The notes under the pieces were generated by a model. It did not search any database, had not been told where the DNA came from, and was given only the letters and a program-made list of their open reading frames with translations. Below, piece after piece: positions 26,313 through 64,000 of a stretch of DNA of 64,000 bases (the first letter of the stretch is position 1; each line of letters starts with the position of its first letter). A program made the position numbers and the translations under genes. The stretch is taken from positions 10,739 to 74,738 of the forward strand of contig DBYW01000011.1 of NCBI GenBank assembly GCA_002311645.1, given 5' to 3'. Source of the DNA: Bacteroidales bacterium UBA1176. GTDB taxonomy: Bacteria; Bacteroidota; Bacteroidia; Bacteroidales; WCHB1-69.

Positions 26313-26413
26313 AAGAAACTAAGAAATTAAGAAATTAAGAAATTAAGAAATTAAGAAGTTAAGAGGTTGATTATTAATAGTTTAATATTTTAATATTTTA
26401 ATGATTTAATAAC
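26313..26413. repeat. Tandem 8-nt word array (AAGAAATT, about 6 copies) followed by an AT-only word array
   Basis: AAGAAACTAAGAAATTAAGAAATTAAGAAATTAAGAAATTAAGAAGTTAAGAGGTT, then GATTATTAATAGTTTAATATTTTAATATTTTAATGATTTAATAAC. The second part overlaps the last codons of the 26390 gene. Confidence 0.85.
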
Positions 26414-34372: not shown

Positions 34373-34398
34373 ATTTTTATACTTTACGAAACAAAGCC

Positions 34399-34442
34399 GC
34401 AAATGTACATAAATTTTAAATATGCACTGACATGATGTAATT
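34399..34442 (-). promoter_or_regulatory. Promoter-containing 44-nt repeat, copy A (drives the 30449-34372 gene)
   Basis: GCAAATGTACATAAATTTTAAATATGCACTGACATGATGTAATT. The minus strand carries the -7 box TACATTTG (34400-34407), 28 nt upstream of the start at 34372. It is nearly identical to copy B at 39416-39459. Confidence 0.55.
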
Positions 34443-34522
34443 GTTGTGATTTTCCCGCACACCGTCCCTTCCCAGGGGTTGCAGCGCTCGTTCCCTACCA
34501 ACCCTGGCAGACCTCTGGCCTG

Positions 34523-34610
34523 CCAACCACCAACAACCAAAGACCCCATAGTTCATAGCCATAGTTCAAAGTTCCAACGACCAACCACCAACGACCAACC
34601 ACCAACAACC
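34523..34610. repeat. Low-complexity CCAAC-word array with an embedded CCATAGTTCA duplication
   Basis: CCAACCACCAACAACCAAAG ... CCATAGTTCATAGCCATAGTTCAAAGTTCC ... AACGACCAACCACCAACGACCAACCACCAACAACC. Confidence 0.85.
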
Positions 34611-41332: not shown

Positions 41333-41336
41333 GGTT

Positions 41337-42629: not shown

Positions 42630-42675
42630 AATAGAAAACACAGTTAACTTTATTATTAATTAAAACAACAATGCT

Positions 42676-44190: not shown

Positions 44191-44251
44191 TTGGAACAGG
44201 TTGTTTGAATGCCAATTTCTTTAGATTATTAAGTATTAAATATATTAAAGT

Positions 44252-45706: not shown

Positions 45707-45747
45707 TTTAGAGTTTTTAAGTACAATAAGAAAAAATAGAAACAGAT

Positions 45748-47139: not shown

Positions 47140-47155
47140 TTAAAATGTTGATTTG

Positions 47156-48889
47156 ATGCAAGACAAGCCAACCCGAGTTAAAGTCCTTGTTTTCACTGTG
47201 GTGTCGTTGCTCATGGCTACGACGGCGTTCGCGCAGTGCATGGCCCCTCGTGAGCAAAGGGGCGACGGCTTCGCGAAGTCGCACAAATACGACCAGGCCA
47301 TCAGCGACTATGCCAATGCCTTGACCTGCCCTGAACTGACCACCGCCGACAAGACCCGCCTCAACAAGAAAATCCAAAACTGCAAGGCTCTCAAGGAAAA
47401 GGAGAGAAAGGAGAAGGAAAATAGGGAAAAGGCTGCTCGTGCGGCGCGTGGGAATGACAATGCCACTGCGGATATGCAACAGGACTCTACCGAAAACCAT
47501 GCCATCAGCGACGAGGTGGCAGACACCGGAGATGATGCTTTGGACACCCTGATCGGGAAAGAGGAGATAGATCCATACCAAGTGCTCCGGGAACTGCATG
47601 AGAAATGGAAGAAGACCGCTTACATGGGTAGTATCCGCGTCAACATCGAGGGCCAGTGCTCGGACGGCTCGAAACTTCTCAACGAAGAGATGGACTATGT
47701 CGTGCCCAAGGTCTTCTACTCGCCGCTCGACCCCGACTCGGTCCATGAGGTGATGTTGGATGTCTGCATATTGCGCAAGGAAAGTATCATCATCCGCAAG
47801 GAATGCCCGGTGGAGGTAAAGCCTGTGTCGGGCGATTTTATCATCAAGGACCTGATATGGTCGCCGGAATACGAGCCAGGCGACTACACCTTCCAGATCA
47901 TGTACAATGGCACCCCCATCTATTTGGGCGAGTTCGTCGTCCAGCAAAAGAAAATCAAGTTGATTGTCAACACTATCGATGCGGAGTATGTGGACACCAT
48001 GCACCGGATTATGGTCAACAATAAAGACACGGTGCTGACGTTCACAGTTGAGGCCAACGCCTCTTACACGGTGACGTTGCCCGACTGGTGCATGCTGAGG
48101 CAAAAGAAGGGCGACATGTTCGAGGTCGAGGTGCTGCGGAACACGGCCAAGGATGCGCGCATCGGTGCCGGCTCCGTGACGGCCGCATCGCGCAACAAGA
48201 ACAACTTCAAGACCATTAAGTTCAACATCCGTCAAGCCGGCACGCAGTACAAGTTCGATGTCAACAACAAAACGACCACTCTTTCGCGGATCATGAAGGC
48301 CCGGGGCGGCAACATCTCCTTGATGGCGCACACCGACGCCCCTTCCTGCCGTATTGAGGGCGCTTCCGCGTGGTGCTCCGGTGCGGTGACCCGCGACAAG
48401 TACAACCTGAATCTTCAGATCCATGTCAGCACCAACAAGAGTGCCCGCTCAAGATACCACACGCTCTACGCGATTGTCTACGATGGCGTTGACAAGGCCA
48501 TCGACAGCATCCCCATTGCCATCCGCCAACGCGGGAACATCCCCATTTTAGAGTCCATCTTCATTCCGGGTGCAGGCTTGATCAGCAAGGGTCGCAACGG
48601 CCTTGGCGGTGTCATTCTCTTCGGAGAAATCCTTACGGGCGGAGTCGCCATCGCCAACCATTTCGTCTGCGACTATTCCAAGAAAAACGATAGGACGAAT
48701 TTCTTCACCCGAAACGAAGCCACCATTCGCGCATCCTCCCTCGGCGCGTGCATAGGCATCTATGTGCTGAACTTGGTGCTTACGCCGACGTTGAAGGCCA
48801 AAGAGAACTATAATATCAGCTTTTATCCAGCGGTGCAGCCCTCCATGGGGCAGGCAACCCTCTCTATGGGGTTCTCCTGCCGGTTTTAA
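47156..48889 (+). CDS. Secreted/membrane protein with two BACON-like modules and a C-terminal double-helix membrane anchor (DUF5683-like); paralog A
   Basis: Signal ...TTAFAQ|C, then CMAPREQRGDGF. BACON-like DWCMLRQKKGDMFEVEVLRNTAKDARIGAGSVTA. C-terminus IFIPGAGLISKG plus two hydrophobic helices, ending ...SMGFSCRF. Confidence 0.6.
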   Translation: MQDKPTRVKVLVFTVVSLLMATTAFAQCMAPREQRGDGFAKSHKYDQAISDYANALTCPELTTADKTRLNKKIQNCKALKEKERKEKENREKAARAARGNDNATADMQQDSTENHAISDEVADTGDDALDTLIGKEEIDPYQVLRELHEKWKKTAYMGSIRVNIEGQCSDGSKLLNEEMDYVVPKVFYSPLDPDSVHEVMLDVCILRKESIIIRKECPVEVKPVSGDFIIKDLIWSPEYEPGDYTFQIMYNGTPIYLGEFVVQQKKIKLIVNTIDAEYVDTMHRIMVNNKDTVLTFTVEANASYTVTLPDWCMLRQKKGDMFEVEVLRNTAKDARIGAGSVTAASRNKNNFKTIKFNIRQAGTQYKFDVNNKTTTLSRIMKARGGNISLMAHTDAPSCRIEGASAWCSGAVTRDKYNLNLQIHVSTNKSARSRYHTLYAIVYDGVDKAIDSIPIAIRQRGNIPILESIFIPGAGLISKGRNGLGGVILFGEILTGGVAIANHFVCDYSKKNDRTNFFTRNEATIRASSLGACIGIYVLNLVLTPTLKAKENYNISFYPAVQPSMGQATLSMGFSCRF

Positions 48890-48919
48890 CAGTCCGTCTC
48901 AAAAGAAGTTAGTTAGCTT

Positions 48920-50521
48920 ATGAGGAAAATTCTTACCTTAATCTGCCTTGTGGTCCTTCCATGTATGCTTTGGGCGCAATGTTTCACCCCCCGGGAGCAA
49001 AGGGGGGACTCTTTTTTTGCTGAAAAAGATTACAAGGCTGCAAAAGACTGGTATGAAAAAGCCAAGACCTGTATGGACCTGACGAACAGCGACAAGTCAC
49101 GTTTGAACGGTAAAATTGCGAAATGTAACAAGCTTATCAAACAGCCCGATGACCAGCCACAAACTCCGCAGCCTACCAAACCCGAAACCGAATGGGTCAA
49201 GACCGCCTATATGCAGGACCCGGAAATAAGTCTCGAGTTCTATAAAGACGGGGATAAACTGCAAATCCCTGCGCAGGATATGGACTATTTTGTCCCGGTT
49301 GTGCGGTATGTGCCCAAAGACACCGTCAAGGACCATGTGGCAAGCCTGCGCCTGCGTGTCTGGCAGGGCACCGACCTGAGCCGGCGTCCCAAGTCGGACG
49401 TGAACCTCGATTGCCAAGTGCTGCATAACAAGCGGGAAACGAGCTTGGAACAGCAGAAATGGAATCATGGCACAGGTGTTTTCACCATCGAGATCACGAA
49501 CCGCTACAACAACACAACCCTCTACAAGGACGTCATAGAGGTCCTTGAGAAAACCATCAGTCTCCAAGTAAACACCAGCAGCGGAACACCGGCTGAAAAC
49601 TTGCTGATTGGGAAAGGAACTCCGACAAAGGTGTATCGCTACATGGTCGCCACCAATGCCGAGAGCTTCCAGGCTGTTTCCACCGCCTCGGACTGGTGCA
49701 AGATCGAGAATATAACCGGTAACAGTTTTGATGTCCGTGTGTTAGAGAATAACGGTCGCGACATGCGAGTCGCCGACTGCCGCGTGACTGCCGGCGACAA
49801 GACGGTCTCCTTCACCGTGACGCAGGAGGGCAAGTCCTTCTTCCTGACGGTGGACGGGTATTCTACACGCATGCCGGATCAGACGTGCCGCGCCCGGGGC
49901 ACCCGGCTCTATTTCCCCGTCAAGTCCAATGCCCGGTGGTCTGTCAAAGGCGACAACAGATGGTGTCGTTGGAACTCGGCGATGAGCAAAGACACATTGG
50001 TGCTCGATATTGCGCCCAACGACAAGGCTTCCAAACGCGAGATAGAGATACAGGTGGTGGCTGTGGACGGCAACGGGGTGGAGGTTGACCGCCTTGACAT
50101 GCGCATTGTGCAGTCCGGCGACTTGGCCATTGTGAAATCCCTCTTTATTCCCGGCTTAGGCCAGATGGGCAGGGGACAGGTGGGCAAGGGCTCCGCTATC
50201 CTTGTCGGTGAGGTGGTCTGTGCCGGCACGGCTCTTATTACATACGCTTCGGGCAAATCGAAGCTGAAACTGATGAACAGCAGCATAGAAACTGGCAATT
50301 ACGACGATTTTATGAAAGCAAGCAAGAGCTACAAGAACTTGCGTGCCGCCAACTATACTTTTTGGAGCTTCGCAGGAGCCCTTTACGTCTATAATCTTGT
50401 GGACGCCATTGTTTCCAAGGGAAAACCGAACTACAAGAACTCCAAGATATCTTTCGCCCCCGTCGCCGCCCCGACATTGGAAGGGCCTGTGTTCTCGATG
50501 GGGTTCAACTTTAAATTCTGA
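48920..50521 (+). CDS. Paralog B of the preceding gene (BACON-like modules plus a C-terminal membrane anchor)
   Basis: Signal ...CMLWAQ|C, then CFTPREQRGDSF. DWCKIENITGNSFDVRVLENNGRDMRVADCRVTAGDKTVSFTVTQEG. LFIPGLGQMGRGQVGKGSAILVGE. It ends ...SMGFNFKF. Confidence 0.6.
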   Translation: MRKILTLICLVVLPCMLWAQCFTPREQRGDSFFAEKDYKAAKDWYEKAKTCMDLTNSDKSRLNGKIAKCNKLIKQPDDQPQTPQPTKPETEWVKTAYMQDPEISLEFYKDGDKLQIPAQDMDYFVPVVRYVPKDTVKDHVASLRLRVWQGTDLSRRPKSDVNLDCQVLHNKRETSLEQQKWNHGTGVFTIEITNRYNNTTLYKDVIEVLEKTISLQVNTSSGTPAENLLIGKGTPTKVYRYMVATNAESFQAVSTASDWCKIENITGNSFDVRVLENNGRDMRVADCRVTAGDKTVSFTVTQEGKSFFLTVDGYSTRMPDQTCRARGTRLYFPVKSNARWSVKGDNRWCRWNSAMSKDTLVLDIAPNDKASKREIEIQVVAVDGNGVEVDRLDMRIVQSGDLAIVKSLFIPGLGQMGRGQVGKGSAILVGEVVCAGTALITYASGKSKLKLMNSSIETGNYDDFMKASKSYKNLRAANYTFWSFAGALYVYNLVDAIVSKGKPNYKNSKISFAPVAAPTLEGPVFSMGFNFKF

Positions 50522-50523
50522 CT

Positions 50524-51843
50524 ATGAAAAACAAAGCCATACTCATACTGACCGCGCTTGCGTTTATTCTCCCGTCGGGTTGTCTCAAGAAACTCGAGAA
50601 AGAGGGCATCTTCAGTGACACCCTGGTGTTCGGGACCGTTACTGTTAATGATGCCGACCACACTCCAGCTTCAAATGTTGTGGTCTCCTTGGTGGATGGC
50701 GAGAACATGGTACGTTCCACCACCACAGATGCGCGCGGCTATTACGAAATATCCGTCTCCGCCGAAGAAATCCATAAGGGTTTCGCCTTTAAGCTTACCG
50801 CCGACTCGGTGTATCAGGACGCGGTGTTCTCCTTGGAAGAGGTGGGCTTCGGCTTAGAGCGTTACGAGCTCAACATGTCGCTCGACGGTCCCTCTTTGCC
50901 GCAGGTGCAAACACTTGAAGTGTCCAATGTCACGACCCAAAGTGCGCTTGCCAAGGGCGTGGTCACGAATAACGGGAACCTGCCTCTCCAGTCGCGCGGT
51001 TTTTGCTGGAGCCGTTTGCCCAATCCCACCGTCAACGATGCCCACGTGAACGTGCCGGGCGGGGTAGGGGAATTCACCGCCACCCTCACCGGTCTTGAAC
51101 CGGCGATAACCTACTATGTGCGCGCATACGCCTCCAACAGCCAGGGTCTCGTGTATGGCGCGGAATTGTCGTTCACTACAGAGGGCGTGTTCCATTGCGG
51201 CAACTCCAAGGTCTACGACTTCGACGGCAATCCTTATAACACCCTGCTGATCGGCACCCAGTGCTGGACTCGCGAGAGCATGCGCACCACGCATTACTCC
51301 GACGGCACGGCAATCCCGGCGGGCACGACCAGCGGCGACACTCCGTACCGCTACGCCCCCGGCAACGACGAGTCCAACGTCTCCACCTACGGCTATCTCT
51401 ACAACTGGTCTGCCACCATGCGCGGCGCGGCATCTGGACAGTCGCCGGTACAGGGTGTCTGCCCTGACGGCTGGCACGTGCCTACCGACGCGGAGTGGAC
51501 CCAGCTGACCAATACGGTCTCCTCGTCAGGCTTCGTTTGCGGCGGCAACCCCGACAACAACGCCAAGGCCTTGGCTGCCACATGGGGCTGGAACAGCAGC
51601 AATGTGTCCTGCTCCGTGGGCGAGGACCCCTCATCCAACAATGTCACCACATTCACGGCACTGCCCGCTGGCTTCTATTCCGGCACCTATAGCAACATGG
51701 GCGGCTATGTCTATTTCTGGACATCGACCGAAAGCGGCTCGTCCACAAGCTACAGCCGTCTTATCCGGTACGACAATCCGAATGTCGCTGTCAGGTCAAA
51801 CGGCAGGAAAAACGGCAATCTCGTGCGCTGTGTGTTAGATTGA
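50524..51843 (+). CDS. Lipoprotein: CarboxypepD_reg-like domain, Fn3-like module and FISUMP domain
   Basis: Lipobox ILPSGC. GTVTVNDADHTPASNVVVSLVDGENMVRSTTTDARGYYEI. FCWSRLPNPT...YYVRAYASNSQGLVYG. DFDGNPYNTLLIGTQCWTRESMR...CPDGWHVPTDAEW...LVRCVLD. The ATG is 2 nt after the upstream stop. Confidence 0.75.
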   Translation: MKNKAILILTALAFILPSGCLKKLEKEGIFSDTLVFGTVTVNDADHTPASNVVVSLVDGENMVRSTTTDARGYYEISVSAEEIHKGFAFKLTADSVYQDAVFSLEEVGFGLERYELNMSLDGPSLPQVQTLEVSNVTTQSALAKGVVTNNGNLPLQSRGFCWSRLPNPTVNDAHVNVPGGVGEFTATLTGLEPAITYYVRAYASNSQGLVYGAELSFTTEGVFHCGNSKVYDFDGNPYNTLLIGTQCWTRESMRTTHYSDGTAIPAGTTSGDTPYRYAPGNDESNVSTYGYLYNWSATMRGAASGQSPVQGVCPDGWHVPTDAEWTQLTNTVSSSGFVCGGNPDNNAKALAATWGWNSSNVSCSVGEDPSSNNVTTFTALPAGFYSGTYSNMGGYVYFWTSTESGSSTSYSRLIRYDNPNVAVRSNGRKNGNLVRCVLD

Positions 51844-51901
51844 GTCTGCTCAAAACACACACCATTCCATATAACCCCATTCAGTCGATAAATATTTAGT
51901 C

Positions 51902-54574
51902 ATGAAAAAAATAACAGGCATATTTTTGATTTCCTTGCTTTTGTTGCAGACACTTGTGGCGCAAGTGCCGAACAGGTTCGTCTACCAGGCGGTGGTGCGG
52001 AACAACAGCAACAATTCGTTGGTCACCAACCAGCAGATAGGTGTCAGGATTTCCATCCGCCAGGGCTCGGAAAATGGCGCGTCCGTATACACGGAGACGC
52101 ACCATCCGACCACGAACGTCAACGGCCTTATGACGGTGGAGGTGGGCGGCGGCACCCCGCAGGGCGGCTCTGTCTTCTCCAACATCGACTGGTCGTTGGG
52201 CACCTTTTTCCTGAAGGTGGACCTCGATCTGAACGGAGGGAACAATTACGTGGACTATTCCACGCAGCAGATATTGAGTGTGCCGTATGCGTTGTATTCC
52301 GAGACCGCCGGCAATGTGCCCACCTTGAACATCACCCCCGTCTCCAACGGCTATGAGTTGGAGTTGTCAAATCCCGGGGGCGGCAGCCAGACCTATTCGC
52401 TGCATCATGGCACGCAGGGACCGCAGGGACCGACAGGTCCGCAGGGACCCTCTGGCCCGCAAGGCCTGGCCGGACACTCCATCAGCGTGCAGTCGGTGCC
52501 CACCTCTAACGGCAATTTGGTGACCATGCACTATTATGACCAGAATGGGCAGCAGCAGAGCGTCCAGTTCAATGTGACGAACGGCCAGCAAGGTCCGCAG
52601 GGCCCCGCCGGCCAGTCGGGCGTGTCGCCCACCATCGTCACCCACCAGTATGCGGACAGCACCGTGGTGGTCATCACGGATGTGGACACCACGCAGTCGT
52701 TCACCATCCGCAACGGCGCGCAGGGTCCCGCCGGCCCTCCGGGTCCCGCCGGCCCTCCGGGAATATCCCCGAGAGTTACCACCACGCCGACCACGAACGG
52801 CACCATCGTCACCATCACCGACTCGGTCGGCACGCGCTCGTTCACGATCCATAACGGCGCCACCGGCCCGCAAGGCCCCGCCGGACAGGACGGCACTCCC
52901 GGCACCCCCGGCTTCTCCCCGACAGTTGCCACCTTTCCGAACAGTAGTGGCACGACCGTCACCATCACGGATGCCACCGGTCCTCACACCTTCACTGTCC
53001 AGAACGGACTCTCCGCCTACCAGATATGGCTGAATGCGGGCAACAGCGGCACCGAGGCTGACTTCCTGGCCGCCACCACGCCCCAGACCCTCTCGCTTTC
53101 CGGCGACCAGCTCTCCATCTCCGGCGGCAACAGCGTGACCCTGCCCATGACGCACACTACGGGCGCCACCGGCCTCTCCGCCTACCAGATATGGCTCAAC
53201 AATGGCCATAGCGGCTCCGAAGCCGACTTCTTGGCCTCCCTGCAAGGCACCAATGGCTACAGCCCAGTGGTTACCATTGAACCGCTCGACTCCATGCGCA
53301 CCCGGCTCACCATCACCGATGCCAACGGCCCGCACGCTTTTGTGCTGCGCAACGGCATCGACGGCGGCCCGTTCATCCAGGAGCAGGCCGACTGGACCGA
53401 GTCTAATGCGTCCGAAAAATCCTATATCCTCAACAAACCGTCGTTGGCGGCTGTGGCCACTTCCGGCAGCTACAACGACCTCTTGAACAGGCCCACGCTT
53501 TTCAGCGGCAACTACAACGACCTGGCCAACCGTCCCACCATACCGACCGTCCCCACCAATGTAGGCGCGTTCAACAACGATGCCGGCTATGTCTCCAATA
53601 GCGGTTGCGACACGGTGGCCTTCTGCGACATGATGGCGCAGGCGAGTCTTCTGAACGCCCGCATTGCTGCCCTGCAGGCCCGGATGGGCCAGGGTGGGGG
53701 AGCCGCCAATGTCACCCTGCCGACGGTTACGACCGCCGCGGTGACGAATATTGGCCATGCGGATGCCACGTGTGGCGGCAATGTGACCTCCGACGGCGGC
53801 GGCATTGTTGCCGCCAAGGGGGTGTGCTGGAACACTACCGGCAGCCCTACCATTGCCGACAACCACACCATAGACGGCGGCGGACGCGGCGCGTTTGTCA
53901 GCGCTGTCCGTGCCTTGGTGCCTGGCACCACCTACCACGTGCGGGCTTACGCCACCAACGACGCGGGCACGGCGTATGGTGACGAGGTAACCTTTACAAC
54001 TGAGCAGCTTCCTGCCGCCGTGGGCGACATTCTCTGCACCGACGGCACGTGGGTCTCCTTAAGCGATTATGCCGCCTCCGGCAAGACCGCCATGGGCGTG
54101 ATCTTCCATGTGGACGACTCCGGCATGCACGGCTGGGCCGTGAATCTGCACGACGACTGCCCATACTACTGTAGATGGGGCGACTACGACACAGACATTC
54201 CCGATTTGCCCAACTTTACGAATAGCACGGTGGCATGTGCCGACACGGCGGGCTACAGTAACACGCAGATCATCCGCAACTATGGAAACGCTGCCACATA
54301 CTCCGCCGCCTGGGCTGTGGACTTTAACAACGGTTGGTACCTGCCTGCCATGGGACAACTGAATACACTGTACAACGCACGCAATACGGTAGAACCATCC
54401 TTGACTGCGGTGGGCGGCACTTTGTTTGGGAATGGTGATCATTTCTGGTCGTCAACAGAATATAGTGAGATCCATGCGTGGTTCGTGACCGGCTATGGCA
54501 CGACCGGCTATGGTTACGTGACCTACCATAATAAGGCCAACGAGCATCTGGTGCGTAGTGTTCGTTCGTTTTAG
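51902..54574 (+). CDS. Collagen-like/tail-fibre-like secreted protein with a C-terminal DUF1566 (Lcl C-terminal)-like lectin-type head
   Basis: GPQGPTGPQGPSGPQGLAG and three further GXY tracts alternate with ~30-aa SPxV...VTITD...F(T/V)(I/V)xNG units. LSAYQIWLN(A/N)G.SG.EADFLA occurs twice. ADWTESNASEKSYILNKP. An Fn3-like VCWNTTGSPT...YHVRAYATNDAGTAYG. GWYLPAMGQLNTLY...FWSSTEY...LVRSVRSF. Confidence 0.8.
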   Translation: MKKITGIFLISLLLLQTLVAQVPNRFVYQAVVRNNSNNSLVTNQQIGVRISIRQGSENGASVYTETHHPTTNVNGLMTVEVGGGTPQGGSVFSNIDWSLGTFFLKVDLDLNGGNNYVDYSTQQILSVPYALYSETAGNVPTLNITPVSNGYELELSNPGGGSQTYSLHHGTQGPQGPTGPQGPSGPQGLAGHSISVQSVPTSNGNLVTMHYYDQNGQQQSVQFNVTNGQQGPQGPAGQSGVSPTIVTHQYADSTVVVITDVDTTQSFTIRNGAQGPAGPPGPAGPPGISPRVTTTPTTNGTIVTITDSVGTRSFTIHNGATGPQGPAGQDGTPGTPGFSPTVATFPNSSGTTVTITDATGPHTFTVQNGLSAYQIWLNAGNSGTEADFLAATTPQTLSLSGDQLSISGGNSVTLPMTHTTGATGLSAYQIWLNNGHSGSEADFLASLQGTNGYSPVVTIEPLDSMRTRLTITDANGPHAFVLRNGIDGGPFIQEQADWTESNASEKSYILNKPSLAAVATSGSYNDLLNRPTLFSGNYNDLANRPTIPTVPTNVGAFNNDAGYVSNSGCDTVAFCDMMAQASLLNARIAALQARMGQGGGAANVTLPTVTTAAVTNIGHADATCGGNVTSDGGGIVAAKGVCWNTTGSPTIADNHTIDGGGRGAFVSAVRALVPGTTYHVRAYATNDAGTAYGDEVTFTTEQLPAAVGDILCTDGTWVSLSDYAASGKTAMGVIFHVDDSGMHGWAVNLHDDCPYYCRWGDYDTDIPDLPNFTNSTVACADTAGYSNTQIIRNYGNAATYSAAWAVDFNNGWYLPAMGQLNTLYNARNTVEPSLTAVGGTLFGNGDHFWSSTEYSEIHAWFVTGYGTTGYGYVTYHNKANEHLVRSVRSF

Positions 54575-54690
54575 GAGTGATCAGTGAATTGTGATCAGTG
54601 ATCAGTGAACAGTGAGGAGATGTTTTTAACCGTAAATCGAAAATAAGAGTGATCAGTGATTAGTGAACAGTGAAGAGGGAGAGGATGTTT
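54575..54690. repeat. Duplicated intergenic unit of the GTGATCAGTGA word family
   Basis: Unit 1 is GAGTGATCAGTGAATTGTGATCAGTGATCAGTGAACAGTGAGGAGATGTTTTTAACCG. Unit 2 is GAGTGATCAGTGATTAGTGAACAGTGAAGAGGGAGAGGATGTTTTAATCG. These are the same words as at 11961-11997. Confidence 0.85.
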
Positions 54691-54712
54691 TAATCGCAAA
54701 CCGCAAATTGTC

Positions 54713-57700
54713 ATGAAAAGAATATATCTGCTGTTGATTTTATGTTTGGGTGTGGTGTCGGCGGTGGCACAGACGCCGGGACAGGCGCCGGTGAGGTTCA
54801 CCTATCAGGCCGTGGTGCGCAACGCTGACGGCGTTCCTTACACGACCGACTATACAGTGCGGATCAGCATCTGGCACAACGCCACGACAGAACCTGCAGG
54901 ACAGCGGGTATATCAGGAGGATCATAAAATTGAAGATCCTGGGAATCCAAATGTTTCAGTAAATGGTGAAATCACACTGACTATCGGCGAAGGAACGAAC
55001 ACATTCGGAAGCTTGGAGAGCATTGACTGGGGCGACGGCACATACTACCTTGTCTCACAATATATTGACGATGCCTTTGATAACGATAACGTGTTTGCCT
55101 CTGGCAGCGTGCAGCTGCTGAGTGTCCCGTATGCGCTTTTCGCGAACCGGGTCGGGGGTGTTGTGCCCACGTCCTATCAGGTGGTGCCGGCCGCCAATGG
55201 CTACACGGTGAGTGTCACCTTCTCGGACGGTCAGGTGCAGACATTTGCGTTGCAGAACGGCAACGACGGGCCGCAGGGCCCTACCGGCTCCACAGGCCCC
55301 ACGGGACCGCAGGGGGCCGCCGGCGTGTCGCCCACGGTCACTGTCAACACCACCTCCTCGCAAGACTCTGTGCTCATCGTGGTGGACAGCGCGGGCGTGC
55401 AGTCCACCTATTCCATACGCTATGGCCAGCGCGGCCCTGCCGGGCCGGCAGGCCAGCCGTACCCCTTCAGCCCGACGGTGACAGTGAGCACCCTCGGCAA
55501 CAACATCATCATTATCATTCCGAGCAGCATGCCGGTATCCTTGACGCATGGCACGGACGGGCCGCAAGGTCCCCAGGGCCCTCGGGGCCCCCGCGGGGTC
55601 TCGGGCGTAAGCCCTTCCATAACCTTCTCCCCGGTGGTCAACGGCGACACCCTCGTGACCATCACCGACACGTTGGGCAACCATGCCTTCATCGTCCGTG
55701 CGGGCGCGCAGGGCGCGAGTGGCAGCCCGGGCGCGGCGGGCACGACAGGTGCCTCGCCCATCGTGAGCACCCAGACCGTCGGCGACGGTATCCTGCTGAC
55801 TGTCAACACTGCCGGCGTGCAACAGCAATACATGATCAGCAACGGAAAGTCCGCCTACCAGGCATGGCTCGACGCCGGCCACACCGGCTCTGAGACCGAC
55901 TTCCTTTCCGGCCTGGAACTCCAGAGCCTTTCCCTTTCCGGACGGAACTTGTCGATACATCCGGGCAACTCGGTTGTGTATCTGCCCGACTCGTTGGGCA
56001 CGACGCAACAGGGTCTCTCCGCTTACCAGGCCTGGCTCAATGCAGGCCATACGGGCACGGAGGCCGACTACCTGCAGTCGCTGCGCGGCGGGGATGGCAC
56101 ATCGGGTGTCACGCCCGTCGTGACCATCGAGGTGCTGGACTCGATGCGCACGCGTGTCACCATCACCTCGGCTGCTTATCCGCAAGGCCAGAGTTTTGTG
56201 GTGCGCAACGGCATTGACGGCTCCTCTTTCGTGCAGGTCCAGTCAGACTGGAACGAGACCTCGACGGGCAGTCCCGCCTACATCCAGAACAAGCCCACCC
56301 TGTCGACGGTGGCTACCACGGGCAACTACAACGACCTGCAAAACAGGCCCACGCTTTTCGACGGCAACTACAATAGCCTTACCAACAGACCCGTTATCCC
56401 GACTGTTCCCACGAATGTAAGTGCATTTGCCAATAATGCAGGCTATATTTCCAATAACGGCTGCGACACGGTGAATTTTTGCGGCCTCGCAAATCTGCTC
56501 CAGTCGCTTTCCGACACGCTCGACGTGATTGAAAGCCGGATTGACACCACCATAGTGCCTCCCACCGTACACACGAATGCGGTGCAGGTTGCGGGCTTGA
56601 CGGCCCATACGGGCGGTGAAGTGCTCTCCGACGGCGGCTCGCCCGTTACGGGCACCGGCGTGTGCTGGGACACTGTGCCGAACCCCACTTTGTCGCACAA
56701 CCACACCATCGATGTCTCCTGGCAGGGACTCTTCAGCAGCACCTTGTTGGGCCTTTCGCCCGCGACCCTCTATTATGTGCGGGCATACGCCACCAACGCC
56801 GCCGGCACAGGTTATGGCAACGAGGTGACGTTCACATCGGGATGCCCCGTCTTTGCAATTGACATTGCGGGTGCGGGAAGCATCTGCCAAGGGGAAGCCA
56901 TCACGCTTGTGGCATCGGGCGCGGTGAACTATGTGTGGAACACCGGAGCACAGACGGCCTCCATCACGGTCACGCCCACGAATTTCGGCACGACGACCTA
57001 CACGGTGACGGCCACCGATGCGGACGGCTGCACGGCCACGGCATCGAAGACGGTGATTGTCAACCCCGTCTTCAGCCAGTCAGTCAGTGTGTCTGTCTGT
57101 GATAGCGAGCTGCCCTACACTTGGAGCGGGCAGACCTACACGGCGAGCGGCGACTATACCCGCACGTTCCAGACCATCAACGGCTGCGACAGTGTGGTGA
57201 CGCTGCACCTGACCGTCAATATGTCGGCGACCACACAGATCAGTGCTACGGCTCTCGACAGTTACACTTGGAACGAGCAGACCTACACGGCGAGCGGCGA
57301 CTATGTGCAACATCTGCAAACCGTTGATGGCTGTGACAGTGCCGTGACGTTACATCTTACAATAAATCATATTCCTGCCGGCGACGCGCAGCCTTGCCCG
57401 GGCACGCCCACCGTCACCGACTACGACGGCAACGTCTATAATACTGTGAAGATCGGTCAGCAGTGCTGGATGAAGGAGAACCTGAGAACGACGCACTATT
57501 CGGATGGGACGGCGATAAATGCTGGATCTTCAAGTAGCATGAATGGCTCATATTGGTTCAAGCCGAATGAAAATGCCTCCAACGTGCAAACTTACGGACG
57601 CTTATACAGCTGGGCGGCTGTGATGCATGGCGCAAGCAGCAGCAACGCCAACCCCAGCAATATACAGGGTGTCTGCCCCACAGGTTGGCATGTGCCGAGC

Positions 57701-60700
57701 GATGCGGAGTGGTCGCAGCTGACGAATTATGTGAAAAGTCAGAGTTTGTACCAATGTAATGGCAGCAACAGCTATATTGCAAAGGCGTTGGCGGCTACAG
57801 AAAACTGGAATAGCCATAATGGAAATTGTGCGGTTGGCAACGACCTTGCGTCAAATAACATTACGGGGTTCAGTGCGTTGCCAGCAGGTAAACGCACAAT
57901 TGTGGTATTTTCAGACAGCTATAGCGAGTTTGGTAAGGAGGCGGTATATTGGTCTGCCACGTCTAATATGTTGACTACAATAATAAAAACGTATGTCATA
58001 TCCTATAATTCTGCTGCTGTAGCGACTGATAGTGAAAATCGCAACAGTGGATTATCTGTACGTTGTCTCCGTGGTAACGGTGTAAACATTCCAGTGGTGA
58101 CCACAGACACCGTCACCAACATTGGCATGGCCACGGCCATGGGCGGTGGTAACGTTGTCTATGACGGTGACGCTGCTGTGACGGCGCGCGGTGTGTGCTG
58201 GAACACTACCGGCACCCCGGCACTTGACGATAGCAACACCGTCTTTACCACCGACGGTAGTGGAACAGGTGCGTTCACAAGCTCGCTTACGGGCCTGCAA
58301 CAGGGCACCACCTACTACGTGCGGGCGTATGCCACCAACAGCGCGGGTACGGCGTATGGCAACGAGGTTAGCTTCACAACTTTGGCCATCCCCGCCGGCG
58401 ACGCACAGCCCTGTCCGAACAACCCCACCGTCACCGACTACGACGGCAACACATACAACACTGTGAAGATCGGTCAGCAATGTTGGATGAAGGAGAACCT
58501 GAGAACGACGCACTATGAGGACGGGGTGGAAATACCAGCGGGCAACAGTGCTTCATACGACGTTGCCTATCGCTACAACCCGTTTGGTTCTTCAGGCAGC
58601 GTGGCCACATACGGCTACCTTTACAACTGGCCTGCGGTGATGCATGGCGACTCCTCCCGCTTTGACACTCCCAGTGGCGTGCAAGGCATCTGCCCGCAAG
58701 GTTGGCACGTGCCGAGCGTTACGGAATGGACGCAGCTGACGGACTATGTGAGCAGCGTTCCCGCATACGTGTGTGGCGAATTTTTTATTGGCGAAATTGC
58801 CAAAGCATTGGCTTCCACAACGGGATGGAACAGTGACAGCGTTTATTGTTCCGTGGGCAATGAACAAAGCACAAACAATACTACGGGATTTAATGCTATG
58901 CCCGTAAGCTTATACTACGGACAATCCGGCTATGGTAGCTACGGCCTCACCGCCTGTTTCTGGAGTTCTACTGAACTCGATAGTCATTTTTCTATTACGG
59001 ATAGTAACCTAGCTATTCAATTTCGTCTCCAAACGGGCGACGACGTGTCCCTGGGCTCCGGCAACAAGTTCAACGGTTTTTCTGTTCGATGCGTCCTTGG
59101 CGACGGAGCGAACCTGCCTGCGGTGACTACATCCAGCGTCTCCAACATCGGTACGACCACCGCCACCGGCGGCGGCAACGTGACCTACGACGGCAACACC
59201 ACGGTGACGGCGCGCGGCGTCTGCTGGAACACCACCGGCACGCCGACCATCAGCGACAGCCACACCACCGACGGCAGCGGAACGGGTGCATTCACCAGCA
59301 GCATAACAGGACTTACTCCCAACACGACCTATTATGTGCGCGCCTACGCCACCAACAGCATGGGCACGGTCTATGGTAACGAAGTTGTCTTCACGACGGG
59401 TTGCCCCTCCTTTACGGTCAGCATCTCAGGTGACGATCAGGTCTGTTTCCCCAATAGCACCGTGCTTCGAGCATCGGGTGCGACGAGCTATGTGTGGAGC
59501 ACGGGCGCGACAGTCCCGAATATCGGAGTGGTGCTTGCCCAGACGACAACCTACACGGTGACGGGTACTGATGCGTGGGGCTGCACGGCCACGGCGACGA
59601 AGACTGTGATAGCATTTCTCCCTGATAATACGACACTGCACGTATCTGCGTGCGATAGCTACGAATGGAACGGAGAGATCTACACACAAAGCGGCGACTA
59701 TACCCAAACTTTCCAGAATGTGCATGGCTGTGACAGCGTGGTGACGTTGCACTTGACCCTGTTGCCTGCGGCTTCCATTACGCCTGCGCAGGTGCCCACC
59801 GTATTCGCTAATACGCCCGTCACCCTCAGTGCCTCGGGAGCCAACATGCTCACGTGGACGGATGAGAACGGCAATGTCGTGGGCTGCGGCAACACGGTGA
59901 CGGTTACGCCGGTGGATACTACCGTCTATACGGTGACCGGCCATGATGAAGATGCGAACTTAGTGGTGAACGGCGACTTTGAGCAAGGGAACACCGGCTT
60001 CACGTCGGGATACACTTATCATACGCAAAACAACGGACCTGGTTATGGAACATATACCATCCGCGATGATGCCTATAACATTTTGGGTAACAACCATCAT
60101 TACGGATACGGCGGTTCCGGTCTATTTATGATTGTGGACGGAGCCAGCACCGCCAACGTGGTGGTGTGGAGCGAGACGGTGAATGTGCAGCCTGGAAGCC
60201 TTTACCGCTTTGCCATGCAGGCGATGATGTTGAGCACGGCCAATCCAACCGCACATTTCAAGATTTTGGTAAATGGTGAACAGCTCGGTGCGGTGGAAAC
60301 CATGCCGAACTCAGATCAGTGGCGGGAGATCCAGCGCTTCTGGAACAGCGGAAGCAACACCACGGCCACCATCACTATTATTGACGAGACCAATAGCGGG
60401 GGTAACAACGACTTTGGCCTCGACGGCATACGTTTTGCGCGGATGACCTCCTGCGACGCCACCGCTTCTGTTCCTGTGGAAGTACTTCACATCCCCGCCG
60501 GCGACGCGCAGCCCTGTCCGAACACCCCCACCGTCACCGACTACGACGGCAACGTCTATAATACTGTGAAGATCGGCAACCAGTGCTGGATGAAGGAGAA
60601 CCTGAGAACGACGCATTATGCGGATGGGGAAGAAGTAACAAGTCGTTTCTCACCTAATAACGACGAGAACAATGTACCCGTTTACGGATATCTCTATAAT

Positions 60701-63700
60701 TGGTCAATAATGATGCATAGTGCTGTCAGCAGCTCCGACAACCCCAGCGGCGTACAAGGTATATGTCCAACAGGTTGGCACTTACCATCCAATGCAGAGT
60801 GGGATCAATTGACAAGTTATGTAAGTAATATTCCACAATACTTATGCAATGACAAAATTGCAAAGGCTTTGGTTTCAACTACGGGATGGAGCATCCACAA
60901 TGGAAACTGCACTCCTGGAAATAATCAAGATTTAAACAATGCTACAGGTTTAAGTATTTTACCTTCGGGTAGTAGTTCTTCGCTAGGTGGTGTTTTCAGC
61001 CAACAAGCAACGTTCTGGAGTGCTACTATAGATATTGGACATGGAGGTGCATGGTTTCGTCGTTTTTCTTACGACAATGCCTACGTAAGTTATGGTACTG
61101 GCAGCGTGAACATCGTTTTTTCCGTCCGTTGCCTCTTGGGCGATGGCGCAAACCTGCCTGCGGTAACCACCTCGGCTGCGAGCAACATCACGGCCAACAC
61201 TGCCGACTGTGGCGGCAACGTGACCTACGACGGCAACACCACCGTGACGGCGCGCGGCGTGTGCTGGAACACCACCGGCACCCCGACCCTCAGCGACAGC
61301 CACACCACCGACGGCACGGGCACGGGTGCGTTCACCAGCACGCTCACCGGCCTGCATGAAAACACTACCTACTACGTGCGGGCCTACGCCACCAATAGCA
61401 TGGGCACGGTCTATGGCGAGGAAAGGGTGTTCACCACGGAGTCCAGCATCTCCAGTGGCGACGCACAACCTTGTCCGAACAATCCCACCGTGACCGACTA
61501 CGACGGCAATGTCTACAACACCGTGAAGATCGGCAACCAGTGCTGGATGAAGGAGAACTTGAGAACGACCCACTTTGCCGACGGCACGGATATAAATTAC
61601 GCGGGTGGAGCGACGGGCAGTAACAATAATTTGTCCAATACAGACGAGTGCTATTATACCACCGCCGGCGATGCGGCCACGTATGGCTATGTCTACAACT
61701 GGTTGGCGGCCATGCACCGTGCAAACGGCAGCGCGGCCAACCCGAGCGGCTTGCAGGGTGTGTGCCCCAATGGCTGGCACCTGCCTTCTCAAGCAGAATG
61801 GAACCAGCTGTTCGACTATGTGCGCAGTGTGCCGGCGTATGGGTGCAACGGCAACTCCAACAGCATCAATAAGGCGTTGGCCTCCGACTTCGGATGGCAG
61901 AGCACCGGAAGCGCCTGCACGCCGGGCAACGACATGAGCTCGAACAACAGCACCGGCTTCAATGCGATGCCTGCGGGCGGCAACGGCGGCTTTGGCCAGG
62001 GCTTCTATGTCTGGAGCGCCACCCCGAGCAGCAGCACCCAGGCTTACTGCGTCGACATATACCGGAACTATGCGGCACCGGTCACCGTGTCCCGCGACTA
62101 CAACGACACCCGCACCGTCCGCTGCGTCCTTGGCGCGGGCGTGAACCCGCCCTCCGTGACCACCGGCCAGGCCAAGCAAACCGGCAACACCTCCGCCTAC
62201 TGCGGCGGCGAGGTGACAGCCGACAACGGCGCCGCCGTCACCGAGCGCGGCATCTGCTGGAGCGCATACCCGAATCAGAATCCGACCGTGGGCGGGCCTC
62301 ACGCTGCCAGCGGCAACGGTATAGGCACCTTCACCGCTGACCTCACAGGGCTGGATCTGTGGGACACCGTTTACTTTGTCCGCGCATACGCCACCAACAG
62401 CGCCGGCACGGCCTACGGAGATGTGATACCCCTTTACCTCTATCCTGTAGTGCCCAAAACCGGCACCGAGACCTACGACATGTACTACAACACCGTGTCG
62501 GTGTTCGACCACGGCGGACCATGGACCGACTATGACGACTATTGTGACGGCCAATTAGTCATCACCGCGCCGACGGCGAACATGATACTGCAAATCTCCG
62601 GCGACTACAATACGGAGGACTGCTGCGACCACCTCCTCATCTACGATGGAAACGGCACCAATGTCCAATTGGCGGACCTCCATGGGACGGGTTCCATCGG
62701 CACGCCCATCCTGACCACCGGCAACACCGTGACCCTGCGCTTTGCCTCTGATTTTTCTGTGACCAATCCTGGCTTCTCGCTGACGGTGGAGGCCATCCAG
62801 CCCGTGGTGCCCGGCAGCGTGATAATCTCCGGCTACGACGTGGTATGCGACGGCGGCACCACCACGCTTACGGCCACCTCCGATGTGAGCGGCACCTACA
62901 CGTGGAGCAATGGCACAACCGGATCGCAAATTACCGTGGGCGCGGGCACCTACACCGTGACCGTAACCTCGGCGACCGGCAACTCCTTGTCGTCTTATCC
63001 TTTCGTGGTCTATGGAGCACAAAGCGCCACCGTGTCGGTACTCCAGTCTGCGTGCGAAAGCTACACCTGGAACGGCAGCACCTACACGCAGAGCGGAGAC
63101 TACACAAAACATCTCACTACCTTGATGGGCTGCGACAGCACCGTGACGCTGCACCTGACGCTTAATCAGGGTACGCACAATGCCTATACGGAAGCCTCCA
63201 ACGGATCCTACACGTGGCATGGCCAGACCTACACCGAGAGTGGGGTCTACACTTACGCCTACACCAATGATGACGGGTGTCCCAGTGTGGACACGCTGCA
63301 TCTTACGGTAAACCACATCCCCGCCGGCGACGCACAGCCCTGCCCGAACAATCCCACTGTCACCGACTACGACGGCAACGTCTACAACACGGTGAAGATC
63401 GGCAACCAGTGCTGGATGAAGGAGAACCTCCGCACCACGCACTACGCCGACGGCGCAGCAATTCCTGCGGGAACCTCTGGCTCTACCTCTGATCCTTACT
63501 ATTATGTATATTCCGGTTTGGATGCCGCCCTCTACGGATACCTCTACAACTGGCCTGCCGTGATGCATGGTGCGGGCAGCACTAACGCCATTCCCAGCGA
63601 CGTGCAGGGTGTCTGCCCGACCGGCTGGCACCTGCCCTCCGACGCAGAGTGGACACAGCTTCTCGGCTATGTGAGCAGTATGTCGGTATACCAATGCGAC

Positions 63701-64000
63701 GGCAACAGCGGCAACATCGCCAAGGCATTGGCGGCCACAGACGGCTGGTACAGCTACGGCGGTACCTGCAAGGTGGGCGACACGCCTTCCGGTAACAACG
63801 CCACCGGTTTCGGAGCCATGCCCGCCGGCTTCTACAACAACGGTTGCGGCAGCTCCGGCGACTTCGCCTTCTTCTATGGTGCCACGCAATCCTCCGGCAG
63901 CAATGCGTTGTATTACTACCTGTCTGCTGACAACGCCAATGTCACTCGCGCCAGCAGCGCCAAGTCGCGCGGCTACTCCGTGCGCTGTCTCCTCGGCAGC
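54713..64000 (+). CDS. Giant multidomain surface protein (at least 3,096 aa, 3' end outside window): collagen-like/tail-fibre-like N-terminal region and five FISUMP domains interleaved with Fn3-like, Cys-repeat, CBM-like and CUB-like modules
   Basis: It is not in the supplied ORF track. By hand translation from ATG 54713 (MKRIYLLLILCLGVVSAVAQ|T), frame +2 stays open to the window edge; I spot-checked about 15 segments codon by codon. The N-terminal ~700 aa are paralogous to 51902-54574. FISUMP starts (PAGDAQPCPxxPTVTDYDGNxYNTVKIGxQCWMKENLRTTH) are at about 57371, 58388, 60491, 61455 and 63317. Confidence 0.85.
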   Translation, partial: MKRIYLLLILCLGVVSAVAQTPGQAPVRFTYQAVVRNADGVPYTTDYTVRISIWHNATTEPAGQRVYQEDHKIEDPGNPNVSVNGEITLTIGEGTNTFGSLESIDWGDGTYYLVSQYIDDAFDNDNVFASGSVQLLSVPYALFANRVGGVVPTSYQVVPAANGYTVSVTFSDGQVQTFALQNGNDGPQGPTGSTGPTGPQGAAGVSPTVTVNTTSSQDSVLIVVDSAGVQSTYSIRYGQRGPAGPAGQPYPFSPTVTVSTLGNNIIIIIPSSMPVSLTHGTDGPQGPQGPRGPRGVSGVSPSITFSPVVNGDTLVTITDTLGNHAFIVRAGAQGASGSPGAAGTTGASPIVSTQTVGDGILLTVNTAGVQQQYMISNGKSAYQAWLDAGHTGSETDFLSGLELQSLSLSGRNLSIHPGNSVVYLPDSLGTTQQGLSAYQAWLNAGHTGTEADYLQSLRGGDGTSGVTPVVTIEVLDSMRTRVTITSAAYPQGQSFVVRNGIDGSSFVQVQSDWNETSTGSPAYIQNKPTLSTVATTGNYNDLQNRPTLFDGNYNSLTNRPVIPTVPTNVSAFANNAGYISNNGCDTVNFCGLANLLQSLSDTLDVIESRIDTTIVPPTVHTNAVQVAGLTAHTGGEVLSDGGSPVTGTGVCWDTVPNPTLSHNHTIDVSWQGLFSSTLLGLSPATLYYVRAYATNAAGTGYGNEVTFTSGCPVFAIDIAGAGSICQGEAITLVASGAVNYVWNTGAQTASITVTPTNFGTTTYTVTATDADGCTATASKTVIVNPVFSQSVSVSVCDSELPYTWSGQTYTASGDYTRTFQTINGCDSVVTLHLTVNMSATTQISATALDSYTWNEQTYTASGDYVQHLQTVDGCDSAVTLHLTINHIPAGDAQPCPGTPTVTDYDGNVYNTVKIGQQCWMKENLRTTHYSDGTAINAGSSSSMNGSYWFKPNENASNVQTYGRLYSWAAVMHGASSSNANPSNIQGVCPTGWHVPSDAEWSQLTNYVKSQSLYQCNGSNSYIAKALAATENWNSHNGNCAVGNDLASNNITGFSALPAGKRTIVVFSDSYSEFGKEAVYWSATSNMLTTIIKTYVISYNSAAVATDSENRNSGLSVRCLRGNGVNIPVVTTDTVTNIGMATAMGGGNVVYDGDAAVTARGVCWNTTGTPALDDSNTVFTTDGSGTGAFTSSLTGLQQGTTYYVRAYATNSAGTAYGNEVSFTTLAIPAGDAQPCPNNPTVTDYDGNTYNTVKIGQQCWMKENLRTTHYEDGVEIPAGNSASYDVAYRYNPFGSSGSVATYGYLYNWPAVMHGDSSRFDTPSGVQGICPQGWHVPSVTEWTQLTDYVSSVPAYVCGEFFIGEIAKALASTTGWNSDSVYCSVGNEQSTNNTTGFNAMPVSLYYGQSGYGSYGLTACFWSSTELDSHFSITDSNLAIQFRLQTGDDVSLGSGNKFNGFSVRCVLGDGANLPAVTTSSVSNIGTTTATGGGNVTYDGNTTVTARGVCWNTTGTPTISDSHTTDGSGTGAFTSSITGLTPNTTYYVRAYATNSMGTVYGNEVVFTTGCPSFTVSISGDDQVCFPNSTVLRASGATSYVWSTGATVPNIGVVLAQTTTYTVTGTDAWGCTATATKTVIAFLPDNTTLHVSACDSYEWNGEIYTQSGDYTQTFQNVHGCDSVVTLHLTLLPAASITPAQVPTVFANTPVTLSASGANMLTWTDENGNVVGCGNTVTVTPVDTTVYTVTGHDEDANLVVNGDFEQGNTGFTSGYTYHTQNNGPGYGTYTIRDDAYNILGNNHHYGYGGSGLFMIVDGASTANVVVWSETVNVQPGSLYRFAMQAMMLSTANPTAHFKILVNGEQLGAVETMPNSDQWREIQRFWNSGSNTTATITIIDETNSGGNNDFGLDGIRFARMTSCDATASVPVEVLHIPAGDAQPCPNTPTVTDYDGNVYNTVKIGNQCWMKENLRTTHYADGEEVTSRFSPNNDENNVPVYGYLYNWSIMMHSAVSSSDNPSGVQGICPTGWHLPSNAEWDQLTSYVSNIPQYLCNDKIAKALVSTTGWSIHNGNCTPGNNQDLNNATGLSILPSGSSSSLGGVFSQQATFWSATIDIGHGGAWFRRFSYDNAYVSYGTGSVNIVFSVRCLLGDGANLPAVTTSAASNITANTADCGGNVTYDGNTTVTARGVCWNTTGTPTLSDSHTTDGTGTGAFTSTLTGLHENTTYYVRAYATNSMGTVYGEERVFTTESSISSGDAQPCPNNPTVTDYDGNVYNTVKIGNQCWMKENLRTTHFADGTDINYAGGATGSNNNLSNTDECYYTTAGDAATYGYVYNWLAAMHRANGSAANPSGLQGVCPNGWHLPSQAEWNQLFDYVRSVPAYGCNGNSNSINKALASDFGWQSTGSACTPGNDMSSNNSTGFNAMPAGGNGGFGQGFYVWSATPSSSTQAYCVDIYRNYAAPVTVSRDYNDTRTVRCVLGAGVNPPSVTTGQAKQTGNTSAYCGGEVTADNGAAVTERGICWSAYPNQNPTVGGPHAASGNGIGTFTADLTGLDLWDTVYFVRAYATNSAGTAYGDVIPLYLYPVVPKTGTETYDMYYNTVSVFDHGGPWTDYDDYCDGQLVITAPTANMILQISGDYNTEDCCDHLLIYDGNGTNVQLADLHGTGSIGTPILTTGNTVTLRFASDFSVTNPGFSLTVEAIQPVVPGSVIISGYDVVCDGGTTTLTATSDVSGTYTWSNGTTGSQITVGAGTYTVTVTSATGNSLSSYPFVVYGAQSATVSVLQSACESYTWNGSTYTQSGDYTKHLTTLMGCDSTVTLHLTLNQGTHNAYTEASNGSYTWHGQTYTESGVYTYAYTNDDGCPSVDTLHLTVNHIPAGDAQPCPNNPTVTDYDGNVYNTVKIGNQCWMKENLRTTHYADGAAIPAGTSGSTSDPYYYVYSGLDAALYGYLYNWPAVMHGAGSTNAIPSDVQGVCPTGWHLPSDAEWTQLLGYVSSMSVYQCDGNSGNIAKALAATDGWYSYGGTCKVGDTPSGNNATGFGAMPAGFYNNGCGSSGDFAFFYGATQSSGSNALYYYLSADNANVTRASSAKSRGYSVRCLLGS

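Follow-up and report, generated by a model that had tools for sequence, protein, structure and literature searches.

Why do the beginnings of five domains within a single gene remain alike in their DNA when the remainder of each domain has diverged? The question is raised by a giant gene located at the end of a 64,000-nucleotide stretch of Bacteroidales bacterium UBA1176 (assembly GCA_002311645.1, contig DBYW01000011.1, positions 10,739 to 74,738 of the forward strand; hereafter the window). An earlier note on this DNA had described five near-identical direct repeats of ~125 nt at the starts of the FISUMP domains encoded by the gene, and had proposed that concerted evolution keeps these 5' halves alike, that in-frame recombination between them adds or deletes cassettes composed of an Fn3-like module and a FISUMP domain, and that the 3' halves are under diversifying selection. 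The repeats were for the most part confirmed, and the evidence leads us to favor a different origin for their likeness. We consider it fairly probable that the gene carries an old, diverged FISUMP array in which the domain starts are held by protein selection together with local codon bias, and in which rare recombination gives module turnover.

The reading frame of the giant gene (frame 2, + strand) is free of stops from after the stop at 54671 to the end of the window, spanning more than 3,100 codons, and 3,095 residues of the product are encoded within the window. The complete product was identified by an exact-sequence look-up (protein only) as P0089, a protein of 5,611 aa from a 106-kb NCBI contig. 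Its module architecture, read with profiles built from the gene's own modules, consists of Fn3-like (FN), Ig-like (IG), ~48-aa repeat (DM), CBM-like (CBM), CUB-like (CUB) and FISUMP (FIS) modules in the order NT(collagen-like)-FN-IG-DM-DM-FIS-FN-FIS-FN-IG-DM-IG-CBM-FIS-FN-FIS-FN-CUB-IG-DM-DM-FIS-FN-FIS-FN-FIS-FN-IG-x-DM-FIS-FN-FIS-FN-FIS-FN-x-FN-IG-Cterm. Thus P0089 contains 10 FISUMP and 12 Fn3-like modules, and the first five FISUMP domains (F1 to F5) lie inside the window. Among the 3,095 window residues these five stretches were recognized by both Pfam (PF09603; 516.6 bits against a cut-off of 33.9) and NCBIfam (TIGR02145; 514.7 bits against a cut-off of 41.65). The N-terminus, MKRIYLLLILCLGVVSAVAQ, appears by eye, without a predictor, to be an ordinary cleavable signal peptide. 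A second assembly of the gene on a bovine rumen metagenome contig (L001), taken with surrounding genes that include some for proteins sorted by the type IX secretion system, assigns the gene to an uncultured Bacteroidales bacterium of the rumen. Its product would be a giant exported protein of many domains, in which the FISUMP copies are probably old paralogs with synonymously saturated bodies.

Self-alignment of the gene recovered the five repeats in the places where they had been described. They are non-random, direct and in-frame, with spacings of 1017, 2103, 957 and 1869 nt (all divisible by 3), and each corresponds to the first 42 codons (126 nt; hereafter the segment) of a FISUMP domain. 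A 17-nt core of the repeat has five matches in the window where 0.13 would be expected by chance, and a search of both strands of the window with this core found no further good copy outside the giant gene, the one match with three mismatches being at an unrelated site. To call the copies near-identical is too strong, since pairwise among the five the DNA identity is 82-91% (11-23 differing positions), the amino-acid identity is 88-98% and exact runs extend over 17-50 nt. The closest pair is the one that the earlier note had singled out, F1 and F3, with 11 differences over 126 nt and the longest exact run. The much greater divergence of the downstream halves was also borne out: after codon 42 the pairwise identity among F1-F5 is 49-58% for DNA and 41-50% for protein, and profiles taken per 30 nt fall sharply at the end of the segment, from ~90% to ~40%.

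Much of this likeness resides in the protein. The segment encodes a peptide close to IPAGDAQPCPxxPTVTDYDGNxYNTVKIGxQCWMKENLRTTH, and 65 small, unrelated FISUMP proteins encoded on other contigs yield DxxPCPxxxTVTDxDGNxYNTVQIGNQCWMKENLRTTxYADG as their consensus. Because the same peptide is the family-wide consensus, protein-level selection accounts for most of the DNA identity. In an alignment of 70 sequences the invariant or near-invariant residues are D17, D19, G20, N21, Y23, G29, Q31, W33, C92, C119, C140 and C214. An AlphaFold2 model of F3 (predicted local distance difference test, pLDDT, 93; predicted template modelling score, pTM, 0.89) places the segment in a coil (residues 1-13) followed by strands at 14-16, 22-28 and 31-34, such that it would form a short Cys-containing linker and the first three beta-strands of the domain.

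The earlier note had further held that the starts are conserved at the DNA level beyond the protein. This proved true in part. At identical residues the same codon is used in 272/372 cases within the segment (73%, versus 44% expected from the codon usage of the gene), compared with 42% versus 40% expected in the remainder of the domain. Gene-wide codon usage was rejected as the sole baseline, however, because unrelated genomes already give 50-62% and the expectation of 44% is too low. For the comparisons that follow, copies in the giant gene are denoted A (F5 and F7 being A5 and A7) and those in its syntenic ortholog in another species (P0090, 5,643 aa, locus L076) are denoted B; the same seven upstream genes precede both, and three assemblies of the ortholog show a 1-nt difference only. 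The same-codon fraction of the segment is 0.73 within the giant gene, 0.75 within the ortholog and 0.71 between them, 0.63-0.65 against other FISUMP genes of the lineage, and 0.50, 0.53, 0.61, 0.62 and 0.62 against five unrelated loci; for the domain bodies it is 0.42-0.46 in every comparison. The case for position-specific codons as a sign of recent common ancestry is weakened, as Val26 GTG, Thr41 ACG, Gly20 GGC and the AGA codon of Arg39 recur in an unrelated gene.

Composition and synonymous divergence agree with these controls. The G+C content at third codon positions (GC3) is 0.81-0.93 for the segment in all copies of both species and 0.37-0.79 for the domain bodies. The proportion of synonymous differences (pS) in the segment is 0.43 among the copies of the giant gene, 0.40 among those of the ortholog and 0.46 when the two genes are compared. 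The closest ortholog pairs (A5/B3 and A4/B5) give 0.45-0.46, and the young pair A5/A7 gives 0.30, against 0.28-0.34 in the rest of its domain. Such a plateau, independent of the age of the pair, indicates strong local codon bias rather than recurrent homogenization, and most of the synonymous excess is family-wide local codon bias. We propose that the DNA likeness would have two causes, namely that the segment is the most constrained peptide of the whole FISUMP subfamily (proportion of nonsynonymous differences, pN, ~0.05), and that its conserved residues are nearly all encoded by preferred G/C-ending codons, with the consequence that synonymous divergence would plateau at ~0.43 and not at 0.75. 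The codon bias itself probably reflects accuracy-type selection on conserved residues.

The differences between the two orthologs involve entire modules. P0090 contains 9 FISUMP and 13 Fn3-like modules in an order unlike that of P0089: one FN-FIS unit and the FISUMP domain after the CBM-like module are missing, and FN-IG-DM and IG-FN units are extra. Within the giant gene, F5 and F7 are duplicates (866 nt at 84% identity, body pS 0.36) whose homology starts at the conserved segment and stops inside the next Fn3-like module, and their duplication would be about as old as the species split. The proposal that recombination adds and deletes cassettes thus holds over evolutionary time, and the sequences support a history in which modules have probably been gained, lost and copied by recombination. 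Mechanistically, homologous recombination among the segments and Fn3-like modules may occasionally have duplicated, deleted or patched modules, and occasional recombination between conserved pieces would explain why the orthologs differ in module number and order. It is plausible that the conserved pieces acted as crossover sites. Searches of genomes and metagenomes for strain-level relatives, in which the unique N-terminal region served as query, returned only the known ortholog.

Of the other explanations, the one that survives best is the original proposal that concerted evolution keeps the 5' ends alike, together with frequent in-frame gain and loss of Fn3-FISUMP units and positive selection on the 3' parts. 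Were it true, the gene would be a self-contained generator of length and binding diversity for a surface protein in a rumen symbiont; we judge it unlikely. The same-codon excess of the segment over the naive expectation and over the rest of the domain speaks for it, as do the rare codons common to the copies and the 50-nt exact run of F1/F3. Segment identity within versus between genomes provides a clear test of conversion against constraint, and here the defining sign of concerted evolution (paralogs in a genome more alike than orthologs) is absent for the giant gene. Because the same-codon fraction between species is about the same as that within the gene, ongoing concerted evolution of this gene is unsupported. 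A label-permutation test gave 16.5 differences per 126 nt within species versus 17.6 between species (p ~0.05), a difference driven by B6/B7 and A5/A7, and a run test on the polymorphic sites of the five window copies detected no significant conversion tract (global p 0.40). Taken together with the pS plateau and the 50-62% of same codons already found in unrelated genomes, these results do not sustain ongoing concerted evolution of the 5' halves in this gene. The A5/A7 duplication does begin at the segment, as this explanation would have it, but segment and remaining domain have the same pS in that pair.

The feature shared with concerted evolution is found in the ortholog, where B6 and B7 (L076, ~20957-21126 versus 21998-22167) contain a sharp, exact tract of 170 nt that comprises the end of the Fn3-like module and the first 137 nt of the domain, with flanks 40-90% identical and a body pS of 0.67. 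This tract, observed in a single assembly, looks like a recent conversion-like event. For the giant gene, identities of 82-91% and the short exact runs argue against frequent exchange. RecA-type recombination needs a few tens of perfectly matched bases and drops steeply with divergence, and 126-nt repeats with exact runs of 17-50 nt are on general grounds weak substrates for it. The repeats of the giant gene would show no active homogenization, and would be poorly suited to frequent copy-number change. The differences in module number and order between the orthologs also fit frequent gain and loss, yet real Fn3-FISUMP cassettes in the window are limited to F2 and F4. The earlier note had placed Fn3-like modules before the last four copies; this is correct for F2 and F4, whereas F3 is preceded by a CBM-like module and F5 by two ~48-aa repeats. 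Similarly, the long identical stretch that it quoted as common to these modules, ACGGCGCGCGG...TGCTGGAACAC, recurs in three of the Fn3-like modules (near 58145, 59171 and 61211), while a fourth (near 62204) has a diverged version. Nor do the FISUMP starts form the strongest DNA repeat in the gene, which is the Fn3-like pair 59071-59399 versus 61111-61439 (331 nt, 80%).

Diversifying selection on the 3' halves did not emerge from the data. The ratio of nonsynonymous to synonymous divergence (dN/dS), calculated by segment on paralog and ortholog pairs of the two species, stays below 1 wherever dS could be measured: 0.03-0.14 for the conserved segment and 0.09-0.62 for the others where dS is finite. 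The highest value occurs in the C-terminal sheet (0.62 for A5/A7), a peak that can be counted in favor of positive selection, but with all values below 1 the variable part appears to be under purifying to relaxed selection. Across 19 copies, variability peaks over residues 128-210, comprising loop 3 and the C-terminal strands, with a mean top-residue frequency of 0.49-0.59 versus 0.95 in the first 42 residues. A Foldseek search of the PDB with the F3 model gave C-type-lectin-like matches, weak ones only. Fib_succ_major has been grouped with DUF1566 as a C-type-lectin-like class with a C-terminal variable region (PMC5758913; PMC11661182), and by analogy the variable C-terminal third of the FISUMP domain may have a ligand-binding role.

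Several observations weigh against a static array held by constraint and codon bias. The segment retains a same-codon excess of ~0.1 over the unrelated baseline (0.73 versus 0.50-0.62), AGA (7% usage) encodes Arg39 in 4/5 window copies, and codon 15 is species-biased, being GTC in 6/7 copies here versus GTG in 7/9 copies of the ortholog. The remaining shared non-preferred codons are compatible with a pattern left by common ancestry or by old conversion. Moreover, B6/B7 show that conversion-like events strike exactly the conserved segment. The bodies of the positional orthologs A1/B1 are saturated (pS 0.73, 44% aa identity), whereas flanking single-copy genes between the two genomes have a pS of 0.21-0.48; domain bodies have therefore undergone more replacement or shuffling than would be expected if the array were static. 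Finally, only two species-level genomes were compared.

The A1/B1 saturation, which arose despite a conserved module context, also lends weight to a further explanation in which the segment and the downstream Fn3-like module/VRC motif serve as homology anchors for swapping diverged FISUMP bodies. The sources of these bodies would be other paralogs, other array positions, neighboring FISUMP genes and perhaps other rumen Bacteroidales, and the array would be a mosaic of histories. If so, the giant protein would be a shuffled library of binding modules, with exchange occurring without dedicated enzymes. Consistent with this, the body of A4 is closest to B5, which occupies a different array position, and body GC3 varies widely within the one gene against uniformly high values in the anchors. 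The F3 body is nearer to proteins of other contigs (56-61% in the body for the top two, P0091 and P0092, and 61-67% across entire BLASTP alignments) than to its paralogs in the pair of orthologous giant genes, none of which exceeds 53%, and further FISUMP genes, as full open reading frames (ORFs), adjoin the ortholog. Against it, none of the bodies could be matched to a donor of high DNA identity, and the best matches are synonymously saturated. No silent donor cassettes, inverted copies, recombinase or reverse transcriptase came to light in the window, and the heterogeneity of GC3 could be due to relaxed codon selection combined with AT-biased mutation. We regard this explanation as improbable, even more so than concerted evolution. 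A separate test for horizontal import of the low-GC3 F3 body identified no donor, the best outside relatives, at 56-61% in the body, being synonymously saturated.

An artefact in which similar metagenome reads were mis-joined is scarcely credible. In its favor, the source is metagenomic, and the second assembly, L001, departs from the window over a 26-nt patch within one repeat and ends frameshifted or chimeric in another. Against it, the two independent assemblies agree at 19,281/19,288 positions over 44713-64000 with all five copies included, the frame is open for more than 3,100 codons, a comparable array is present in the syntenic ortholog, which comes from other samples, and the copies differ at 11-23 positions and so are not collapsed duplicates. 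The sole difference from L001 consists of 7 substitutions clustered at 61275-61300, in the Fn3-like module before F4, and each version matches the same stretch of another Fn3 copy in the gene, such that the patch reflects either a polymorphism left by short-range conversion or a switch of path by the assembler. It was not accepted as live conversion because the end of L001 is chimeric or frameshifted inside the donor repeat. At that end (~21470-21592) the last ~35 residues of the ENA-predicted P0001 do not match P0089 and the contig stops 18 nt further on, in an Fn3-like repeat; the end is probably chimeric or frameshifted.

Table 1. Positions in the window of the giant gene, its FISUMP domains and their conserved starts, the Fn3-like modules and a comparison gene.
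Feature	Coordinates	Strand	Remarks
439-aa gene, single FISUMP domain	50524..51843	+	used as comparison copy from a different gene
Giant gene, first 9.3 kb	54713..64000	+	ATG at 54713; continues beyond the window
FISUMP domain F1	57371..58075	+	aa 887-1121; GC3 past conserved start 0.49
Repeat copy 1, first 42 codons of F1	57371..57496	+	
Fn3-like module directly 5' of F2	58079..58387	+	
FISUMP domain F2	58388..59101	+	aa 1226-1463; GC3 past conserved start 0.56
Repeat copy 2, first 42 codons of F2	58388..58513	+	
Fn3-like module after F2, then Ig-like (no FISUMP)	59105..59404	+	80%/331 nt to the 61145-61444 module
FISUMP domain F3	60491..61141	+	aa 1927-2143; GC3 past conserved start 0.37; AlphaFold2 pLDDT 93
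Repeat copy 3, first 42 codons of F3	60491..60616	+	nearest to copy 1: 91%, 50-nt exact run
Fn3-like module directly 5' of F4	61145..61444	+	holds the 61275-61300 assembly difference
FISUMP domain F4	61448..62134	+	aa 2246-2474; GC3 past conserved start 0.79; nearest relative ortholog copy B5
Repeat copy 4, first 42 codons of F4	61448..61573	+	most diverged, 82-87% versus others
Diverged Fn3-like module after F4, then CUB-like	62138..62434	+	
FISUMP domain F5	63317..63997	+	aa 2869-3095; duplicate of F7 (past window end)
Repeat copy 5, first 42 codons of F5	63317..63442	+	

The domains belong to the FISUMP/Fib_succ_major family (TIGR02145, PF09603) of Fibrobacter succinogenes and Bacteroidota, with which they share the Cys/Trp pattern and the D.DGN.Y.TV.IG.Q.WM.ENL motif. 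This family is known for numerous paralogs per genome (PMC6421346), and the protein database commonly shows multi-FISUMP proteins, which have 2-11 copies and are variously arranged. Here, by comparison, 10 domains occur in one chain of 5,611 aa amid Fn3-, Ig-, CBM- and CUB-like modules and behind a collagen-like N-terminus. While the description of the family mentions lipoprotein signals (PMC5758913), the start of P0089 reads as an ordinary signal. Pfam did not find a type IX secretion system (T9SS) sorting domain in the last 621 residues of P0089, although neighboring genes carry one; by eye, its C-terminal end looks like a DUF1566/Lcl_C-type domain. Elsewhere in the protein, aa 508-570 (56234-56422), beginning SDWNETSTGSPAYIQNKPTLSTVATTGNYNDLQNRPT..., match translated contigs of very diverse origin, including rumen and marine metagenomes and metagenome-assembled genomes labelled Clostridia, Alphaproteobacteria and Dehalococcoidia, and this stretch looks like a widespread short module.

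The giant gene invites comparison with repeat-variable adhesins, such as streptococcal alpha C/Rib, enterococcal Esp, staphylococcal Bap and the collagen-like repeats of Legionella Lcl. In those adhesins head-to-tail repeats are near-identical over the whole unit and strain-to-strain variation in their number is documented. Like them, P0089 is a large exported protein of repeated modules in one frame, whose recombination products would stay in-frame, and a neighboring gene, and weakly the giant gene itself, carry collagen-like and Lcl_C-like parts as in Lcl. Unlike them, only 126 nt of each unit are alike (82-91%), the rest of the unit being 49-58% identical, and the copies are 957-2,103 nt apart, separated by differing modules and not strictly tandem. 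A second comparison is with the targets of diversity-generating retroelements (DUF1566/Fib_succ_major, CLec2), which have the same domain family, a presumed C-type-lectin-like fold and a C-terminal third that is most variable. The variable parts here are ~40-50% identical, however, unlike variants that derive from a single template by adenine-specific change. A scan of the giant gene and 19 other large ORFs of the window revealed no reverse transcriptase, nor did the window show any template-like or inverted repeat of >=60 nt outside the coding repeats, and retroelement-driven variation was rejected for the window on these grounds.

The base composition of the giant gene is itself a mosaic. 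Low values (GC 0.38-0.49, GC3 0.23-0.40) occur at 57800-58100, 58700-59100 and 60700-61100, in the C-terminal parts of F1, F2 and F3, while the F4 and F5 bodies have a GC3 of 0.74-0.79 and other genes of the window 0.55-0.78. Bodies of low GC3 are found in the ortholog too. The mosaic could reflect foreign origin or relaxed codon selection.

Four probable surface-protein genes precede the giant gene (47153-54574): two BACON-like genes, the 439-aa FISUMP gene, and a gene whose collagen-like product of 890 aa ends in an Lcl_C-like part and has N-terminal repeats and an Fn3-like module in common with the giant gene. Further upstream (40202-47139) lies a signalling cluster that encodes a zinc-ribbon protein, a Ser/Thr kinase with FHA, a protein with FHA and a trypsin-like protease, a PP2C phosphatase and a second Ser/Thr kinase. 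Of these five, the last two are in the same order beside the ortholog, and the loci compared do not reach the other three genes of the cluster. At 26390-30388 and 30449-34549 (- strand) are adjacent paralogs of ~1,350 aa with T9SS C-terminal sorting domains, which are 72-87% identical in DNA over stretches of 254-300 nt and over a further one of 67 nt.

In summary, the feature is of a known kind, a surface protein built of repeated domains whose core is conserved. The evidence points to the ordinary case, in which an ancient lectin-like array would have had its N-terminal core frozen by protein selection and codon bias. What has been gained, for a family of domains that is functionally uncharacterized, is a single protein of 5,611 aa with 10 FISUMP domains and a syntenic ortholog that reveals whole-module turnover.

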